Source: a virus
Length of the DNA: 5,588 nt
Virus record (IMG/VR): IMGVR_UViG_3300017773_005253
Span: 1 to 5,588 of that record
Direction: 5' to 3' (one strand)
The notes beneath the pieces were generated by a model. That model was not told the origin of the DNA. It saw only the letters and a program-made list of their open reading frames with translations, and did not search any database. Position numbers and translations under genes: made by a program. Positions 1 to 5,588 of this stretch are shown here, piece by piece (the first letter of the stretch is position 1; each line of letters opens with the position of its first letter).

Positions 1-62
1 CAACCTCAGATTACGACGCGATCACGGCGGATGTGGACAGCACCCGTATCGACAAGTCGTAA
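1..62 (+). CDS. Major capsid protein, C-terminal fragment (duplicate of 5466-5527 caused by circular overlap)
   Basis: Identical to the last 62 nt of the 3815-5527 ORF. Codon phase starts at base 3 and the TAA stop is at 60-62. Confidence 0.9.
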   Translation, partial: TSDYDAITADVDSTRIDKS

Positions 63-64
63 CA

Positions 65-93
65 GGTAGGGGGGTGCCTCCCGCCCCCCTGCC
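65..93 (+). terminator. GC-rich hairpin just after the capsid gene stop; terminator-like
   Basis: GGTAGGGGGG (65-74) pairs with CCCCCCTGCC (84-93), giving 10 bp with one U-G wobble at 67/91. The loop is 9 nt (TGCCTCCCG) and CTTTAAT follows. The T tract is short, so intrinsic termination would be weak or partial. Confidence 0.5.
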
Positions 94-116
94 CTTTAAT
101 ATGAAGGAAAAAACAG

Positions 117-644
117 ATGAAAACGTTCAAAAATGGTCCATTGGCCGATTGGAAACAGATAGAAGCGGGTCAAATGATCCCATTTTTATCGAACAAGGCA
201 CGGCGCGTAAAATTTCAGATTGTAGCGAACAGTCCCATAGAGATATGGGCTGGTACAGACGACCAGCTATCAGATGGGGTTCTGGTTGGAGCATCAAGCG
301 ACAAGGCACAAGTTGAATATACGGTCGTAGGTAATTCATATGTAATGGTAAAAGCTGAGAAAAAATCATCGGTATATATCAATGCACCGGATATTGATCA
401 AACGGTTGAAGAAAGTGAAAAACCAAGTTTCACAAGCATTGAGCCACGCGTAAGAAGCAACACAGATGTGGATCGTATGATGCAGTTGTTGAAATACAAT
501 CAACAACAGAACGAAGCAATGTTGGCTAAAGAGCGCGAAAATATGCTCGCAGAAATGGCAAAACGCTTTGCTGAGCAGCCAAAAGCGGAAACGGTGAAAG
601 AAGAGGCACCAGCAGATGATTCAGGAGCTGAGACCGCTTCTTAG
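117..644 (+). CDS. Hypothetical protein, 175 aa; possible structural or scaffolding protein
   Basis: ATG at 117 with SD AAGGA at 104-108 (8-nt spacer). The N-terminal ~95 aa have a beta-strand-like alternating pattern (VKFQIVANSPIEIWA, VEYTVVGNSYVMVKA, SVYINAP). The C-terminal ~60 aa look helical with an acidic tail (RMMQLLKYNQQQNEAMLAKERENMLAEMAKRFAEQ...EEAPADDSGAETAS). I recognise no family. Confidence 0.7.
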   Translation: MKTFKNGPLADWKQIEAGQMIPFLSNKARRVKFQIVANSPIEIWAGTDDQLSDGVLVGASSDKAQVEYTVVGNSYVMVKAEKKSSVYINAPDIDQTVEESEKPSFTSIEPRVRSNTDVDRMMQLLKYNQQQNEAMLAKERENMLAEMAKRFAEQPKAETVKEEAPADDSGAETAS

Positions 645-1146
645 GTTCTTAAGGTTGGTGCGGGCGTTAGACCGCATCAACCGCTTTAAAAATTCTAAGG
701 ATGAATTTGTAAGTAAAGATCACGTTGAAGCAGCAAGAACGCTTGCAACAACGAAATACAAATCAGTAACAAAAGCATATGATTTCGATGGTGTACATCC
801 AGATATAGTAGAATTCTGGAAGGCCATGGATAAGCATTGCAAGAAACGCAACATACCATTGTGGGCGTTTGAATTTGTACGTTCGAAAAAGCGTCAAGAC
901 GCATTGCAAGCAAAAGGTAGATCCAAAGCAAGGGGTGGGCAAAGTCCACACCAATACGGAATGGCCGTGGATATAGTTCACGCGTCAAGAGCTTGGAATC
1001 TAACTAAAAAAGAGTGGGATGTACTTGGCAGTATTGGCAAGGAAATCGCACGTAAAAGAAATTTGAAAATGGAATGGGGTGGAGATTGGAAATTTTACGA
1101 CCCTGCACATTGGCAGATAAAAAACTGGCGAGACCTACTGGACTAG
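616..1146 (+). CDS. Zinc peptidase M15 family cell-wall hydrolase (VanY / L-Ala-D-Glu endopeptidase-like, T5-endolysin-like); putative endolysin
   Basis: ATG at 616 with SD AGAGG at 602-606 (9-nt spacer). It overlaps the upstream ORF by 29 nt. Family landmarks are FVRSKKRQDALQAKGRS, GGQSPHQYGMAVD (His112 codon 949-951, Asp119 codon 970-972) and WGGDW...DPAHW (His165 codon 1108-1110), which give the H-D-H zinc triad. In-frame TTG 655 or GTG 658 are possible alternative starts. Confidence 0.85.
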   Translation: MIQELRPLLRFLRLVRALDRINRFKNSKDEFVSKDHVEAARTLATTKYKSVTKAYDFDGVHPDIVEFWKAMDKHCKKRNIPLWAFEFVRSKKRQDALQAKGRSKARGGQSPHQYGMAVDIVHASRAWNLTKKEWDVLGSIGKEIARKRNLKMEWGGDWKFYDPAHWQIKNWRDLLD

Positions 1147-1151
1147 CCAGA

Positions 1152-1198
1152 GCCGTCCCCGAAACGGAAACTCCATATATTGGAGTTTCGGGGGCGGC
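1152..1198 (+). terminator. Compound hairpin after the peptidase gene (terminator-like or other ssDNA/RNA structural element)
   Basis: The inner stem GAAACTCCA (1167-1175) pairs with TGGAGTTTC (1181-1189) around the loop TATAT. The outer stem GCCGTCCCC (1152-1160) pairs with GGGGGCGGC (1190-1198) with one U-G wobble, and the two stems are separated by a 6-nt 5' bulge. No T tract follows, so a terminator role is uncertain. Confidence 0.4.
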
Positions 1199-1266
1199 GG
1201 CATTAACTCCCTCTCCTCTTGTTGGGATATGCATTTAGTGACACCAACTGAAGCGAAGTAAGTAAA

Positions 1267-2289
1267 TTGTGTATTAGTACAAACAAATTAGATAACGGAG
1301 TTGAAGTTGCGTGTCGCGAATGCTGGCAATGCAGAAAGCGCCGTGTAGATGATCTAGTAGGCCGTTGCATTGCTGAAAGTAGGTTTTCAAAAAAAACATA
1401 CGCAATAACGTTAACATACGCACAAGATGCGGGCGTTAACGCAGTGACATTGGTTTACAAAGACGTTCAGGATTTTCTTAAAAGACTGCGTAAAAAGTAC
1501 AAATGTCGCTATATAGTAGCTGGCGAATACGGCAGCGCAAAGGGGAGAGCACATTGGCATGTAATTATCTTTTTTAAAGATAAAGCGCCTAATGTGGAGG
1601 AGCAAAAGCGGGTTCAGTGGAAATTCTGGCCTCATGGGTTCAGTTATTTTCAACAACCCGATTGGAAAGGTTTTGAATACGCGTTGAAATATGTGTTGAA
1701 AAACCAAGACTCGCGGAGTGCGGACGCACATTTAGCGATGTCGAAAAAGCCCCCGCTAGGCGCGGAATATTTTAATTGGTTAGCGGATGAATATGTACGC
1801 CAAGGATTGGTGCCGCAATCGTATTTTTACAAGTTTGGAGACATACGCGATTATAAAAACCGCGATAAAAGTTTCATGATGACAGGCAGAACTAAGGAAA
1901 AATTTATGGAAAGATTTTTGGAAAGGTGGCTGGACAAGTACGATACAGATCCACGGTCTGAGATCGTAGACCAGTATATTGACGACGTAACCGAGTTGGA
2001 GTTTACGGACGAAGAGTTAATGTCGCGCCTGCATTATAAACCAGTCAAATACATACAGCCGTGGGAAAATTACGGCGATGGAAAGTTTGACACATATATT
2101 CAACACGACATGGAATATGAAGGAATTCCACTAGTTGTGTGGGAATATGACGACGAATTTCACATAATAACGGAACATGATCAATGGCACGAAAAAAGAG
2201 AAGTAATAGTAGAACAAATACAAAAACGGTCAAAAAAAATACGGTCGCGCAAGTTGACCGAAATATTGCGAGAAGAGTGGGACGATTAA
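1267..2289 (+). CDS. Rolling-circle replication initiator (Microviridae VP4 / gpA-like HUH endonuclease), 340 aa
   Basis: N-terminal Cys cluster CRECWQCRKRR. Motif I AITLTY (1402-1419), HUH motif HWH (1552-1560), and the two-tyrosine motif YALKY (Tyr codons 1678-1680 and 1690-1692). The frame opens after TGA 1249-1251. No ATG lies upstream of the conserved Cys motif, so TTG 1267 is the only canonical start. Confidence 0.9.
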   Translation: MCISTNKLDNGVEVACRECWQCRKRRVDDLVGRCIAESRFSKKTYAITLTYAQDAGVNAVTLVYKDVQDFLKRLRKKYKCRYIVAGEYGSAKGRAHWHVIIFFKDKAPNVEEQKRVQWKFWPHGFSYFQQPDWKGFEYALKYVLKNQDSRSADAHLAMSKKPPLGAEYFNWLADEYVRQGLVPQSYFYKFGDIRDYKNRDKSFMMTGRTKEKFMERFLERWLDKYDTDPRSEIVDQYIDDVTELEFTDEELMSRLHYKPVKYIQPWENYGDGKFDTYIQHDMEYEGIPLVVWEYDDEFHIITEHDQWHEKREVIVEQIQKRSKKIRSRKLTEILREEWDD

Positions 2290-2528
2290 AAGCGCAGCGG
2301 CAAGCAAAAGTTTGGGGGGTTACCAACAATACTTTAGTGATCGAACCATTTAGGGCGCAAGCCCCGATCGCAAACCGCACACCCCCTGAACAGGGAATAG
2401 CGAAGCGGAAAAAACCCATTATAAAATGGTCAGATAAGAATCTGCGTTTAAGGTGTAAGGACAGACCGAAAGATAATAAGCCAACAGGCGGATCTGGAGG
2501 TAAAAGAGAATTTGTACCGTGGTGTTAA
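2184..2528 (+). CDS. Highly basic 114-aa protein; candidate DNA-binding/packaging protein (J / VP5 / ORF8 analogue)
   Basis: ATG at 2184 in the -1 frame relative to Rep, overlapping the Rep 3' end by 106 nt and then running 239 nt beyond the Rep stop. About 31 K/R against 7 D/E in 114 aa. Without this ORF, 2290-2739 would be an implausibly long non-coding gap for a microvirus. The SD is weak, and A-rich DNA easily yields Lys-rich frames. Confidence 0.5.
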   Translation: MARKKRSNSRTNTKTVKKNTVAQVDRNIARRVGRLKAQRQAKVWGVTNNTLVIEPFRAQAPIANRTPPEQGIAKRKKPIIKWSDKNLRLRCKDRPKDNKPTGGSGGKREFVPWC

Positions 2529-2533
2529 GATTA

Positions 2534-2569
2534 GCGTTGACCAAGTAAGTTTACGCACCTGGTCAACGC
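2534..2569 (+). other. Perfect 10-bp stem hairpin at the start of the largest non-coding region
   Basis: GCGTTGACCA (2534-2543) pairs with TGGTCAACGC (2560-2569) with no mismatch. The loop is 16 nt and GGGGTTTGATATT follows. It could be a terminator for the Rep/basic-ORF transcript or an ssDNA origin-associated structure. Confidence 0.6.
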
Positions 2570-2574
2570 GGGGT

Positions 2575-2583
2575 TTGATATTA
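2575..2583 (+). promoter_or_regulatory. Candidate viral-strand origin nick-site core (TTG^ATATTA)
   Basis: The 9-mer TTGATATTA is identical to the core of the phiX174 gene A protein cleavage site as I recall it (CAACTTG^ATATTAATAAC). It lies 5 nt 3' of the 10-bp hairpin in the main non-coding region, and the Rep carries the phiX-type YxxxY motif. Confidence 0.35.
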
Positions 2584-2739
2584 CAACTAAAAAGTGAAAT
2601 ACGTAAAAAAAGCAGTTGACATACAAAACAAAGTGTGAGTCTACTGTATTTAGTTAAAACGAAGTAAAAAGACCGCGAGAGAGTGTAGTCATAATAGTTA
2701 TTATGCGAATTAATCTCCCAGCGGTTGAAGGGATGACAA

Positions 2740-2934
2740 TTGTATAAAATATTATTGGCAGAGATAGTCAAGCCTATCATCCGTCGTGCAGGTACTGCGA
2801 TGGGTGCGACTTTAGTTGGAATGGGCGTGGCATCTGAGCAGGCGTTAGAAATTCAAACGGCGGCGATATCCTTACTTCTTGTTTTAGCTGATCTGATTTT
2901 AAGCAGCTTGGAGAGGAAAGTGAGAGATGAATAA
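2740..2934 (+). CDS. Small membrane protein, 64 aa, two predicted TMDs and a charged C-tail; holin/pinholin-like candidate
   Basis: TTG start at 2740 with SD GAAGGGA at 2727-2733. TMD1 is Gly/Ala-rich (AGTAMGATLVGMGVA) and TMD2 is strongly hydrophobic (IQTAAISLLLVLADLILSSL). The tail ERKVRDE is charged. An in-frame internal ATG at 2800 would give a 44-aa product. Confidence 0.6.
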   Translation: MYKILLAEIVKPIIRRAGTAMGATLVGMGVASEQALEIQTAAISLLLVLADLILSSLERKVRDE

Positions 2935-3022
2935 AACAATCGTAAATATGGCGCATGGCGCGATCATGGGAGTGATTATTTCGATTGCTCTATTTGGTCC
3001 AATTTTATTGGAGTGGGTGTAA
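2927..3022 (+). CDS. Micro-ORF, 31 aa, single-pass membrane peptide (MNKTIVNMAHGAIMGVIISIALFGPILLEWV)
   Basis: Absent from the supplied ORF track, presumably because it is too short; I translated it by hand. ATG 2927 overlaps the upstream stop (ATGAATAA, TAA at 2932-2934). SD GAGG lies at 2913-2916. Its TAA (3020-3022) overlaps the ATG of the pilot gene (TAATG). It has one ~21-aa hydrophobic segment. Confidence 0.5.
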   Translation: MNKTIVNMAHGAIMGVIISIALFGPILLEWV

Positions 3023-3750
3023 TGCCAGCTGGATGGTTAGTTCCTGCTCTACAAATGGGCGCAGCATTAATAGGCGCAAAAGCGTCGGGTGATGCGGCAA
3101 AAGCAAGCCAAAGAGGTACAGATCTAAAAAAGCTGCGCAAAGAATCTGAAGCAGCTGGGTTTAATCCTTTAACAGTGTTGCGTGCAACAGGTGGACAAGG
3201 ATTTAACAAAGGATCAAGCGGAGCTTTAGCAAGTGCTTCATTTTGGAGCAGTTTTGCTAATAGCGCAGGTCAGATTGCACGCCAATTTGATCCATATGAA
3301 AAGCGCCGTAAGCAATTGGATATGATTAATACAATTGCAAATATTAAATATACAGGCGCTTTGACAAAAGAAGTCGGTAAAAAACCTGATGATGGATTAA
3401 CATATTTGTTCAATGCGGATGGTAGCCCCAGATTGAATCAGTTTGGGCAACATATGCATATTGATCCACAGGCAGCAGCAGTTTTTCCGACGTTGCAAGC
3501 GTATATGGATATGTCTGGAAATAATTTAAGTTTACCTCACGAGCAGTTGTTGGATATGAATATCGGTTCATTGCCTACAGCAATAGCAGCTGTTGAGGGT
3601 GGAAAACGTGGAGCGGAGTTGCCTAACACTCCGTCTATGCTTCAATTTCCAAGGCAATATCAATTGAACAATGGCGAATGGAGACGACAAACGCGAGCGT
3701 TTTCGTTTGGTGGTGATCCATTTGGATCAAATTCACCAGTGCAGCCATAA
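3022..3750 (+). CDS. DNA pilot / minor capsid protein (VP2 / gpH-like), 242 aa
   Basis: ATG at 3022 with SD GGAG at 3010-3013 (8-nt spacer). I prefer this to the track's GTG at 3013. It has a Gly/Ala-rich hydrophobic N-terminus (AGWLVPALQMGAALIGAKA) and an AGFNPL motif like the AG(L/I/F)NP motif I recall in gokushovirus VP2. It sits directly upstream of the capsid gene and its length is typical. Confidence 0.75.
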   Translation: MPAGWLVPALQMGAALIGAKASGDAAKASQRGTDLKKLRKESEAAGFNPLTVLRATGGQGFNKGSSGALASASFWSSFANSAGQIARQFDPYEKRRKQLDMINTIANIKYTGALTKEVGKKPDDGLTYLFNADGSPRLNQFGQHMHIDPQAAAVFPTLQAYMDMSGNNLSLPHEQLLDMNIGSLPTAIAAVEGGKRGAELPNTPSMLQFPRQYQLNNGEWRRQTRAFSFGGDPFGSNSPVQP

Positions 3751-3818
3751 TGTGCAAGCGTTGCAAAAAAATAAGACAAATTATTAAGAAAATCATCGGA
3801 AGGAGTAAAAAACGATGA
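3750..3818 (+). CDS. Micro-ORF, 22 aa, ultra-basic amphipathic peptide (MCKRCKKIRQIIKKIIGRSKKR); J-like DNA-binding or membrane-active peptide candidate
   Basis: Absent from the ORF track. Its ATG 3750-3752 overlaps the pilot stop (TAATG), and its TGA 3816-3818 overlaps the capsid ATG (ATGA). 11 of 22 residues are K/R and none is acidic. The Ile residues at 8, 11, 12, 15 and 16 form one helical face. It has no SD of its own, so only translational coupling could drive it. The reading frame also spans the capsid SD. Confidence 0.35.
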   Translation: MCKRCKKIRQIIKKIIGRSKKR

Positions 3819-5527
3819 GAGTAACGGAAATGATACCTAATGCACCGATTACGGTGCAGAAAAGTATGCGAAAGGCGCGTGGGCGTGTTTTAACGTCAGG
3901 CGATGCAGGTAAAATTTTGCCTTTGAAATACGAATGGCTACACCGCGAAGACGGTGTGCAAAGTGGCAAAATCCGTGTCAACGTTGAAATGATGGAAACA
4001 TCTGAAATGTTGATGAACGGGGTTGGCGTGACTTGTTACGCTCATTTTGTCCCAATGCTTGCGTTTGACCGTTTTAACGGTTCAATGAATGAATTGAACG
4101 CAAGTTATAAAAAAGAAAACGGCGTAGCGGGTAGCGTAGTTCCTTTTTTTGAAAGTAATTTAGTTTTTAATGGTACATCAGTTGATGGAGCTGCTGCAAT
4201 AGCTGGCGGCGCTCCAAATTTTGATACTGGACCATCATACGCTAGGGAAACTGAGACATTTTACCAAACTATGGGTATTCACACACAAGCAACAAATTTA
4301 AATACAACGGTTGTTGAAGCTTATAACGCAATTGTGAATTATAGACGCAAAGCACGATCTAAATCCTTACCATTAAGAAACGCATTTGATCATAGATTAG
4401 CAGAAGCGTTTTGGATTAATAACGGTATGCAAAATATTGTGCCTGATTTTGATCAAGCGTTGATAGATGGTGAAGTGAGTTTGCAAGGACTTACTTTTAA
4501 AGCGCCAGTATATTCTGAATTTGCTAGTCGTGGGACTGCAAGTATTACAGGAGGAGGTTCGGAAAGTGGGTCTGATGGTTGGTCTCCAGCGGGAGCAAAT
4601 CAAGATTCAACTTTTCCTCCTTATAATTCAAATAATTTACATCCGGATGGATCAACAACCGGAGCGTATTATTGGGATAATGTTTGGGCAGAATTGACAG
4701 CGGGCGGAAACGCTACGATGTCTTTGGCGGATATTGATCAAGCACGTAAAACAGCAAGTTTTGCTAAGTTGCGTCAATTGTACGATGGCATTGATGACGA
4801 GTATTTGATTGATTTGTTAATGAGCGGAATTCGGGTACCCGAAGAAGCCATGAAACAACCTATTTTGTTAGGCAAAAGCCAACAAATGATTGGGTTTAAT
4901 CAACGTTATGCAACAGACGCAGCTAATTTGGACGAAAGTGCAACAAATGGTTACGCAACATTAGATATGAGTATTCGGACGCCTGCGATGAATACGGGTG
5001 GCGTAATTATGATCACTGCGGAAATTGTTCCTGAACAGTTGTGGGAGCGTAAGAAAGATTATTTTTTATACACAACTGATCCAGACACCCTGCCCTCGTA
5101 TTTGCGAGATTTTTTAGACCCTGAAAAAGTGGCAGTGGTGAAAAACGATCACGCTGATGTAAATCACGCAACGCCAGACGGTACGTTTGGTTATGCACCG
5201 CTCAACCATGAATGGCAGCGGGATTTGGTAAATGTAGGTGGTAAGTATTATCGGCCAGCAAATGATGCGTTTGACGAGGACCGAGCAAAAATTTGGTCTG
5301 CAGAAGCAACAAATCCAACGCTGAATGAAGATTTTTATCTTTGTACAGGGTTACACAAAAAAGTGTTTGCAGATCAGACTGCAGACAGTTTTGAGATTAC
5401 AGCAATGACAGATTTGAACATTGTTGGAAATACTGTGTTTGGCGCAGGTCTGCAGGAAGCAGATTCAACCTCAGATTACGACGCGATCACGGCGGATGTG
5501 GACAGCACCCGTATCGACAAGTCGTAA
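3815..5527 (+). CDS. Major capsid protein (Microviridae F / VP1 family), 570 aa
   Basis: Strong SD GGAAGGAG at 3798-3805, 9 nt before the ATG. It is the largest ORF of the genome. Local landmarks resemble phiX174 F from memory: CYAHFVPMLAF against FTFYVPHRHVY, and GVIMITAEIVP against GTMFTLALVRFP. Its size is typical of non-phiX microvirus capsids. Confidence 0.85.
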   Translation: MRVTEMIPNAPITVQKSMRKARGRVLTSGDAGKILPLKYEWLHREDGVQSGKIRVNVEMMETSEMLMNGVGVTCYAHFVPMLAFDRFNGSMNELNASYKKENGVAGSVVPFFESNLVFNGTSVDGAAAIAGGAPNFDTGPSYARETETFYQTMGIHTQATNLNTTVVEAYNAIVNYRRKARSKSLPLRNAFDHRLAEAFWINNGMQNIVPDFDQALIDGEVSLQGLTFKAPVYSEFASRGTASITGGGSESGSDGWSPAGANQDSTFPPYNSNNLHPDGSTTGAYYWDNVWAELTAGGNATMSLADIDQARKTASFAKLRQLYDGIDDEYLIDLLMSGIRVPEEAMKQPILLGKSQQMIGFNQRYATDAANLDESATNGYATLDMSIRTPAMNTGGVIMITAEIVPEQLWERKKDYFLYTTDPDTLPSYLRDFLDPEKVAVVKNDHADVNHATPDGTFGYAPLNHEWQRDLVNVGGKYYRPANDAFDEDRAKIWSAEATNPTLNEDFYLCTGLHKKVFADQTADSFEITAMTDLNIVGNTVFGAGLQEADSTSDYDAITADVDSTRIDKS

Positions 5528-5588
5528 CAGGTAGGGGGGTGCCTCCCGCCCCCCTGCCCTTTAATATGAAGGAAAAAACAGATGAAAA
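5466..5588. repeat. Terminal redundancy copy 2 (circular-contig overlap)
   Basis: Exact copy of 1-123. It contains the capsid gene 3' end, the GC hairpin and the first 7 nt (ATGAAAA, 5582-5588) of the 175-aa ORF. Confidence 0.95.
5530..5558 (+). terminator. GC-rich hairpin after the capsid stop (second copy of 65-93, in native context)
   Basis: Identical sequence to 65-93, starting 3 nt after the capsid TAA (5525-5527). Confidence 0.5.

Follow-up and report, generated by a model that had tools for sequence, protein, structure and literature searches.

Textbooks present microviruses as phages that lyse the host by one small protein, with no cell-wall enzyme. M15 peptidases were reported in gut Microviridae in 2012 and proposed to be endolysins (PMC3394797), they have been noted in Occultatumvirinae (PMC11499846) and in Rhizobium microviruses, and in 2025 Gp7 of the Tainavirinae phage Ebor, which also encodes a 45-residue "membrane protein", Gp1, upstream of its pilot gene, was verified biochemically to degrade peptidoglycan (PMC11980548). 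The literature we searched gives no account of how such a signal-less microvirus enzyme crosses the host inner membrane. Here we describe p64, a 64-residue protein with at least one membrane span that is encoded at positions 2740-2934 of a 5,588-base stretch of viral DNA (IMG/VR record IMGVR_UViG_3300017773_005253, positions 1 to 5,588; the whole stretch is called the window below), which also carries an M15 peptidase gene. A preliminary description of this DNA had taken the protein for a holin or pinholin with two membrane spans. We lean, by a little more than even judgement, towards p64 being a holin of the canonical type that serves endolysin-based lysis in a large group of microviruses, and not a pinholin, because of its match to the Pfam family PF23987, its charge pattern, the absence of export signals in the accompanying endolysins, its co-occurrence with these enzymes and the elimination of other candidates in the genome.

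Several described systems resemble this locus in part. In lambda S105/R and with class II holins, as here, the membrane protein is small, ends in a charged tail and is accompanied by a soluble, signal-less muralytic enzyme; unlike in the lambda-type cassette, p64 and the enzyme gene lie 1.6 kb apart, p64 sits in the structural operon and there is no dual-start motif. S68 of phage 21 is close to p64 in size (about 64-68 residues) and likewise has a weak Gly/Ala-rich segment followed by a strong one, but the enzyme accompanying p64 lacks a signal-arrest-release (SAR) domain and no second start is conserved. Among solved structures, that of ChiX from Serratia (PDB ID: 5opz, E=3.8e-8) is one of the nearest to the window peptidase. 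ChiX has no signal peptide and depends on the holin-like protein ChiW. This pair is a bacterial secretion system and not a phage one, and ChiW is likened to p64 by description only. In the same virus family, the E protein of phiX174 is also a small membrane protein; it acts in the absence of a muralytic enzyme, and its gene is overprinted on D, whereas p64 is free-standing and travels with an endolysin. Unlike tailed phages with their lysis genes, the window is a single-stranded DNA (ssDNA) genome of 5.5 kb with no evident spanin pair.

Full-text literature searches combining microvirus or Microviridae with holin found no proposed holin partner. The word "holin" occurs 0 times in PMC11499846, PMC9753089, PMC11980548 and PMC9512667, as does "transmembrane" in the first two; no holin is named in the papers on these endolysin-bearing microviruses, nor are their small membrane proteins discussed, and the candidate family appears to be undescribed in the literature searched. 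The preliminary description regarded holin-endolysin lysis as something not demonstrated in Microviridae; the enzyme half was in fact already known, from the 2012 report and from Ebor Gp7, and it is the holin half that is new. If the holin reading is true, a conserved holin would close the gap over membrane passage in a family of at least 144 clusters that is found in cultured Roseobacter and Rhizobium phages and co-varies with endolysins of two folds. Phages with 5-6 kb of ssDNA would then be seen to lyse in the same two timed steps as tailed phages, and the annotation of thousands of metagenomic microvirus genomes would improve. The question is directly testable in existing phage-host isolates.

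p64 is a conserved gene

The window holds the whole genome of a marine microvirus, a circle of 5,465 nt linearised with an overlap, as seen from an exact direct repeat of 123 nt at its ends (1-123 and 5466-5588). Its DNA is 77-79% identical to that of the Roseobacter phages CRPss-151/152/153/155, and the gene order is the same. These four phages, in which an M15 "lysis" gene is already annotated, are marine isolates placed by their authors in the proposed subfamily Occultatumvirinae (PMC11499846).

The p64 open reading frame (ORF) extends on the + strand from a TTG at 2740 to a TAA at 2932-2934 and encodes 64 residues (MYKILLAEIVKPIIRRAGTAMGATLVGMGVASEQALEIQTAAISLLLVLADLILSSLERKVRDE) that end in ERKVRDE, with an in-frame ATG at 2800 corresponding to Met21; in coordinates, size, tail and internal ATG the preliminary description was accurate. 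A frame of 64 residues means little by itself, because the window has 57 ORFs of at least 30 residues, and a chance open frame might be suspected from the shortness of the ORF, its TTG start and the many window ORFs of like length. This suspicion, to which we give practically no credence, is already refuted by comparison with relatives. Between the window and CRPss-151, synonymous changes amount to 37.2 over 43.3 sites (~86%) against 14.8 over 133.7 sites (~11%) for non-synonymous changes, and dN/dS within clades is 0.11-0.24. The start codon in the window clade is TTG after a GAAGGGA ribosome-binding site (2728..2734, + strand, 6-12 nt 5' of the TTG; identical in 10/10 window-clade loci), and in other clades it is ATG at the homologous codon after GAGG. 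We found 41 close homologues of 57-82 residues, mostly on 5-6 kb contigs, and in close relatives the small ORF is intact and syntenic, the kind of conservation on which the preliminary description had made its proposal depend. The saturation of synonymous sites while few non-synonymous ones have changed, the start at the same codon as the ATG of relatives, the conserved ribosome-binding site and the size of the family show p64 to be a real gene, held under strong purifying selection. In protein identity to CRPss-151, p64 (86%) comes ahead of the peptidase (83%), the capsid protein (81%), Rep (75%), the pilot protein (57%) and p31 (47%), the last being a small membrane protein encoded directly downstream of p64.

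A profile search of 1.84 billion representative proteins gave at least 144 p64 clusters (counted at 50% identity; E<=0.001), nearly all of 57-70 residues and matched over their full length. The family can be described by the motif E-x3-P-x2-R-R-x-G-[TS] ... D-L-x2-S-x3-R in a protein of ~60 residues encoded directly upstream of the pilot-protein module, and window p64 has both the motif and the position. P12, R16 and G18 are invariant across the family, R15, G29, D51 and L52 are more than 90% conserved and S55 and R59 nearly so; among 84 sequences, D51 is kept in 83, L52 in 82, S55 in 74 and R59 in 73. Homologues are labelled "hypothetical" in the public records examined. When 50,697 phage records were searched by tblastn, p64 and one diverse family member (P0056) matched only microviruses, and another (P0168) matched nothing.

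The preliminary description had also seen in the ATG at 2800 a second start of the holin/antiholin kind. We rejected this candidate: Met21 is invariant in the close clade only, position 21 across the family being L, A, V or M (most commonly L in 19 sequences, A in 15 and V in 14), no good ribosome-binding site precedes the ATG, and no second Met lies close to the N-terminus.

Matches to known families

The sole recurrent family match of p64 in Pfam is to PF23987 (Phage_holin_10), the family of cyanophage Pam3 gp28. Window p64 matches it with 20.2 bits (E=6.3e-4; curated gathering cut-off 27 bits), residues 12-59 aligning to profile positions 6-50 of 52, so that the two are alike in length class and the alignment is colinear and near full-length; the register is the same in four other members (P0042, P0049, P0056 and P0062). 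The profile is matched by 22/23 close homologues and by 24/77 diverse members, with a best E-value of 3.3e-6. From the ratio of E-values, this best member is likely to score ~27-28 bits and is the only one near the cut-off. When ten members were scanned singly, five had no match and five scored 16.1-23.8 bits. PF23987 differs from the p64 family in that the latter, in every context inspected, is found in microviruses and their prophages and not in tailed phages. Taken together, these matches make it probable that p64 is remotely homologous to a family that Pfam names holin.

Other searches gave little. NCBIfam returned scattered matches in one or two family members (E>=0.016) with nothing recurrent, which we took as the noise baseline, and PHROGs one weak holin match (phrog_565, E=0.04) and no recurrent family. 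There was no match for p64 in PADLOC, none of the family to the pinholin families of Pfam, and no protein returned by a word-indexed protein search carried a precomputed Pfam domain. A Foldseek comparison of the AlphaFold2 model of p64 with BFVD found nothing at E<=0.001; the two best matches, at E=0.025 and 0.16, are to proteins without a name, the others are generic helical hairpins, and we regard them all as uninformative.

Predicted topology

The first 16 residues (2740..2787, + strand) form an amphipathic basic segment containing the invariant P12 and R16 and the near-invariant R15. Hydrophobic segment 1 (residues 17-31; 2788..2832, + strand) is rich in Gly, Ala and Ser, uncharged and weakly hydrophobic, with a maximum of 1.35 on the Kyte-Doolittle scale (15-residue mean, for which ~1.6 is the usual value for a membrane span). 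It contains the invariant G18 and near-invariant G29, with small residues at 22, 23 and 27. Hydrophobic segment 2 (residues 40-57; 2857..2910, + strand) reaches 2.43 and is a confident membrane span; it includes the near-invariant D51-L52 pair and S55, and D51 is its sole charged residue family-wide. The basic C-terminal tail (2911..2931, + strand; ERKVRDE in the window), with its near-invariant R59, is hydrophilic and charged, and by the positive-inside rule would lie on the cytoplasmic side.

Averaged over the 84 sequences, the net charge is +2.3 for residues 1-16, ~0 for 17-31, -1.5 for the loop at 32-39 and +2.1 from 58 to the end. This pattern fits a positive-inside hairpin with both N- and C-terminus in the cytoplasm. 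AlphaFold2, given the family alignment, also models a helical hairpin (mean pLDDT 88.8), with helices at 2-27 and 32-63 and a turn at 28-31.

The endolysins lack export signals

The product of 616-1146 (+ strand) matches PF13539 (1.1e-9) and the PHROGs family phrog_465, annotated as "endolysin" (8e-22). Its matches among PDB structures range from 2e-10 to 4e-8 and comprise an L-Ala-D-Glu endopeptidase (PDB ID: 8q2g; 2e-10), LysB4, ChiX and Ply500; besides ChiX, the enzyme thus resembles endolysins of phages that are soluble. By these similarities it is an endolysin-type M15 peptidase, and, as the preliminary description had held, a signal-less one: no hydrophobic N-terminal segment is present in the window M15 protein, nor in any of 82 related endolysin ORFs. 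Because none of the 82 has such a segment, these enzymes would need a lesion in the membrane.

The same observation bears on the pinholin idea, by which the SAR-like segment 1 would exit the membrane and channels formed by span 2 would depolarise it, activating a tethered endolysin. With its ~64 residues and a weak, small-residue-rich segment 1 preceding a strong segment 2 that contains the polar D51 and S55, p64 does look the part, and its layout resembles that of phage 21 S68. Pinholins, though, work with SAR endolysins. As none of the 82 enzymes has an N-terminal hydrophobic or SAR domain, the T4-type lysozyme that accompanies p64 in one prophage (below) has its domain from residue 12, no dual start is conserved and Pfam gives no pinholin match, we consider the pinholin part of the preliminary description to be very improbable.

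The start of the M15 gene has a feature of its own. An arginine-rich amphipathic stretch, LRPLLRFLRLVRALDRINRF, lies at residues ~6-24 (616-700), partly overlapping the end of the upstream gene p175, and is kept in relatives of the CRPss type. Binding to membranes is one possible role for it, and another is to take the place of a spanin at the outer membrane.

Genomic context and co-occurrence

Wherever the context of a p64 family member was inspected, it proved to be a microvirus or a microvirus prophage, and never a tailed phage. These contexts include marine contigs, cultured Roseobacter phages, 24 Rhizobium phage records, faecal microviruses of tortoise and fruit bat, chromosomal prophages and one concatemeric contig. 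In the window, 1,594 nt separate the M15 stop from the start of p64 downstream, a distance that includes the genes for Rep and for a basic protein, p114; this agrees with the ~1.6 kb given in the preliminary description, and the gap is kept in all relatives. The order p64-(p31)-VP2-VP1 was constant in every locus examined.

Among ~60 related marine microviruses, all contigs of at least ~5.3 kb carry both p64 and M15. The two also stand together in tortoise microviruses 43 and 76, in Rhizobium phage RHph_N25 and in a prophage (L019), and wherever a genome with p64 was complete enough, an endolysin was present too, usually of the M15 type. A second prophage (L020) combines a p64 homologue with a T4-type Phage_lysozyme (PF00959, 2.6e-39; domain from residue 12 of 145) and not with M15. 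CRPss-154, a phage of the same host strain and the one related isolate reported to be without a peptidase, has no p64 homologue by profile search or tblastn, and no detectable endolysin. Subgroups 6 and 7 of Occultatumvirinae are also reported to be without the peptidase. Retention of p64 across a swap of enzyme fold, together with joint absence, is the pattern that a holin-endolysin pair predicts. Two contigs of 5.2-5.3 kb, one with p64 and no M15 (L048) and one with M15 and no p64 (L060), were considered as true exceptions and set aside from their coordinates as truncated, since the contig end is where the gene not seen is expected. The capsid protein of CRPss-154 has no close relatives in IMG/VR, and when the capsid search was re-ranked on CRPss-154, all the resulting genomes carried both p64 and M15.

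These co-occurrences can be set against the classical mode of microvirus lysis (PMC3394797), in which p64 would act alone, in the manner of phiX174 E, as an inhibitor of host cell-wall synthesis, and M15 would serve some other or an auxiliary purpose. The invariant proline and the other invariant residues of this small membrane protein do suggest a conserved host target. An autonomous lysis gene should, however, show the opposite pattern to that seen, p64 being always accompanied by a muralytic enzyme and absent where the enzyme is absent; it is also an independent ORF, not an overprinted one, and has a weak likeness to a holin family. We judge this explanation quite improbable.

A separate observation concerns CRPss-154 (L021), in which a 34-residue ORF with one hydrophobic span (1657-1761) overlaps the end of an HNH gene; it is a candidate single-gene lysis protein. 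The L020 prophage and another microvirus prophage (L125), from different assemblies, are inserted at one and the same chromosomal site, which lies downstream of rpsB-tsf and of a gene for a LuxR-type regulator, and in both the p64 homologue is the first prophage gene. One 12.4 kb contig (L127; JGI 3300007505) is a head-to-tail repeat of genes for Rep, a 63-residue protein, the p64 homologue, VP2, VP1, a 171-residue protein and M15, and is probably a concatemer arising from assembly or rolling-circle amplification.

Is p64 the holin?

Of the proteins encoded in the genome, Rep, a basic J-like protein, the pilot and capsid proteins and the endolysin have assigned roles, and p175 is placed like a scaffold protein, with no family match. 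The only predicted membrane proteins that remain are p64 and p31, and p64 persists where p31 is absent. The preliminary proposal of a holin partner for the endolysin has thus kept its core, with the PF23987 match, the hairpin charges, the signal-less endolysins and co-occurrence with enzymes of two folds behind it, and has lost the pinholin variant and the dual start.

A number of points weigh against the holin reading. The function is putative and comes from sequence. The score of window p64 lies below the PF23987 cut-off, the experimental basis of the PF23987 name was not found in the literature, and a literature search returned no sequence, accession or description of Pam3 gp28, nor what had been tested. 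The topology of two spans is plausible and not secure, because segment 1 is short (15 residues), its hydrophobicity of 1.35 is below 1.6 and the AlphaFold2 turn falls inside it; the two transmembrane domains of the preliminary description are therefore well founded for segment 2, with its value of 2.43, and an interpretation and not an observation for segment 1. The gene is not adjacent to that of the endolysin, so there is no lysis cassette, and its constant place directly upstream of the pilot module, coupled to VP2, also fits a part in DNA delivery or assembly. The negative cases of the co-occurrence come down to one genome, and most of the positive ones are phylogenetically related. Finally, conservation in p64 exceeds that in the capsid protein (86% vs 81% identity to CRPss-151), and nine of its residues are invariant or near-invariant; holins are not usually conserved to this degree, which could point to a particular protein with which p64 interacts.

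The fixed position and the unusual conservation would be explained if p64 were an inner-membrane accessory of the pilot protein, acting in entry or assembly, or a superinfection exclusion protein that keeps out incoming DNA, its linkage to endolysins being due to shared ancestry. The fixed place directly 5' of VP2, the start and stop overlaps running through p31 and the very high conservation, with P12, R16 and G18 invariant and D51 near-invariant, would suit a specific partner of this kind, most of the co-occurrence cases are not phylogenetically independent, and in prophages, where p64 is the first gene by the junction at a dif-like site, expression in lysogens is possible. This explanation leaves a signal-less endolysin without a way across the membrane, however, and the sole recurrent family likeness of p64 is to a holin family, with no match in PADLOC. 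CRPss-154 lacks p64 and yet has a pilot protein and a capsid protein. In virions of the related phage Ebor, significant amounts were found only of the pilot protein, the capsid protein and Gp10, and the small membrane protein Gp1, likened to p64 by description only, was undetected (PMC11980548). On this evidence we think an accessory or exclusion role, although the main rival to the holin reading, rather unlikely.

Under the holin reading, p64 would be an inner-membrane holin, one of two parts of a lysis system that is encoded at separate places on the genome circle. An M15 peptidase of the L-Ala-D-Glu type, lacking an export signal, would build up folded in the cytoplasm, while p64, as the first gene of the p64-p31-VP2-VP1 block, would be translated from a TTG, which is a weak start. 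It would insert with its basic N-terminus and basic tail in the cytoplasm and the acidic loop (32-39) outside, accumulate, oligomerise and open lesions large enough for the folded enzyme to pass through to the peptidoglycan. D51 inside span 2, S55 and the small-residue face of segment 1 may line or gate the lesion, and p31 may, very uncertainly, modulate or help p64. The topology, the formation of holes, their timing and the role of p31 are all things that we infer.

A wider proposal, which we hold tentatively and at somewhat less than even confidence, is that Occultatumvirinae/Tainavirinae-like microviruses practise multi-gene lysis by the holin p64, the modulator p31 and a cytoplasmic endolysin, which would be the first case in ssDNA phages. 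p64 would then represent an ancient, microvirus-wide family, distantly derived from tailed-phage holins and kept in the structural operon, with the SAR-like segment 1 and the buried Asp as the trigger.

The neighbouring gene p31

The preliminary description made no mention of a second conserved membrane ORF. This gene, p31 (2927-3022, + strand), is recognised from its frame, hydrophobicity and conservation, and encodes 31 residues, among them a single, strongly hydrophobic span. The gene overlaps the end of p64 with its ATG (ATGA) and the start of VP2 with its stop (TAATG), and it has a strong ribosome-binding site, GGAGAGGA; VP2 is translationally coupled downstream of p64 and p31. It is kept in 15/15 close loci, with dN/dS within clades of 0-0.27, and similar ORFs of 28-34 residues sharing the motif G-x3-G ... 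A-L-F-G-P occupy the same slot in most marine clades. The homologue in CRPss-151 (L001 1616-1711) carries no annotation in its GenBank record. The genomes from tortoise, from Rhizobium phages and from prophages retain p64 and an endolysin but have no p31. It could be a modulator of p64.

The region varies among marine relatives. In two contigs (L088 4732-4959 and L091 2086-2361) a p31-type span forms the C-terminus of a protein of 75-91 residues with a soluble N-terminal domain of ~55 residues; two others (L085 213-494 and L086 515-718) are also among the loci with variants in this region. Some marine clades have a separate gene for 67-93 residues inserted between p64 and p31.

Other features of the genome

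All window genes lie on the + strand. p175 (117-644), which has no family match, sits at the position of a scaffold gene and is possibly one. After the M15 gene come Rep (1267-2289) and p114 (2184-2528), which overlaps the 3' end of Rep, and then an intergenic region of 211 nt (2529-2739). p64, annotated by us as a 64-residue conserved membrane protein and candidate holin from its frame, homologues, selection, PF23987 match and AlphaFold2 hairpin, and p31 are followed by the DNA pilot protein VP2 (3022-3750), identified by a conserved motif, GFNPLTVLRATGGQG, which is common to it and the annotated pilot protein of CRPss-154, and by the capsid protein VP1 (3815-5527).

A dif-like XerC/D site, ATTCGCATAA-TAACTA-TTATGACTACA (2684..2711, - strand), is found ~30 nt upstream of p64. 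Where the prophages L019 (6905-6931) and L020 (6954-6980) join the host chromosome, similar motifs precede the p64 homologue by 20-70 nt, which suggests that the virus is able to integrate at dif. A promoter scan found none upstream of p64, sigma-70-like sites being fewer than in shuffled sequence.

Two possible structures in the DNA were also seen. A GC-rich hairpin of 12 pairs, nine of them G-C (GGTAGGGGGGTGCCTCCCGCCCCCCTGCC), lies at 65-93 and is repeated at 5530-5558, after the stop of the capsid gene; it could be a terminator or a replication or packaging signal. An inverted repeat, GCGTTGACCA ... TGGTCAACGC (2534-2569), noticed by eye, has a 10-bp stem and a 16-nt loop and is placed just past the p114 stop, where the long intergenic region starts.

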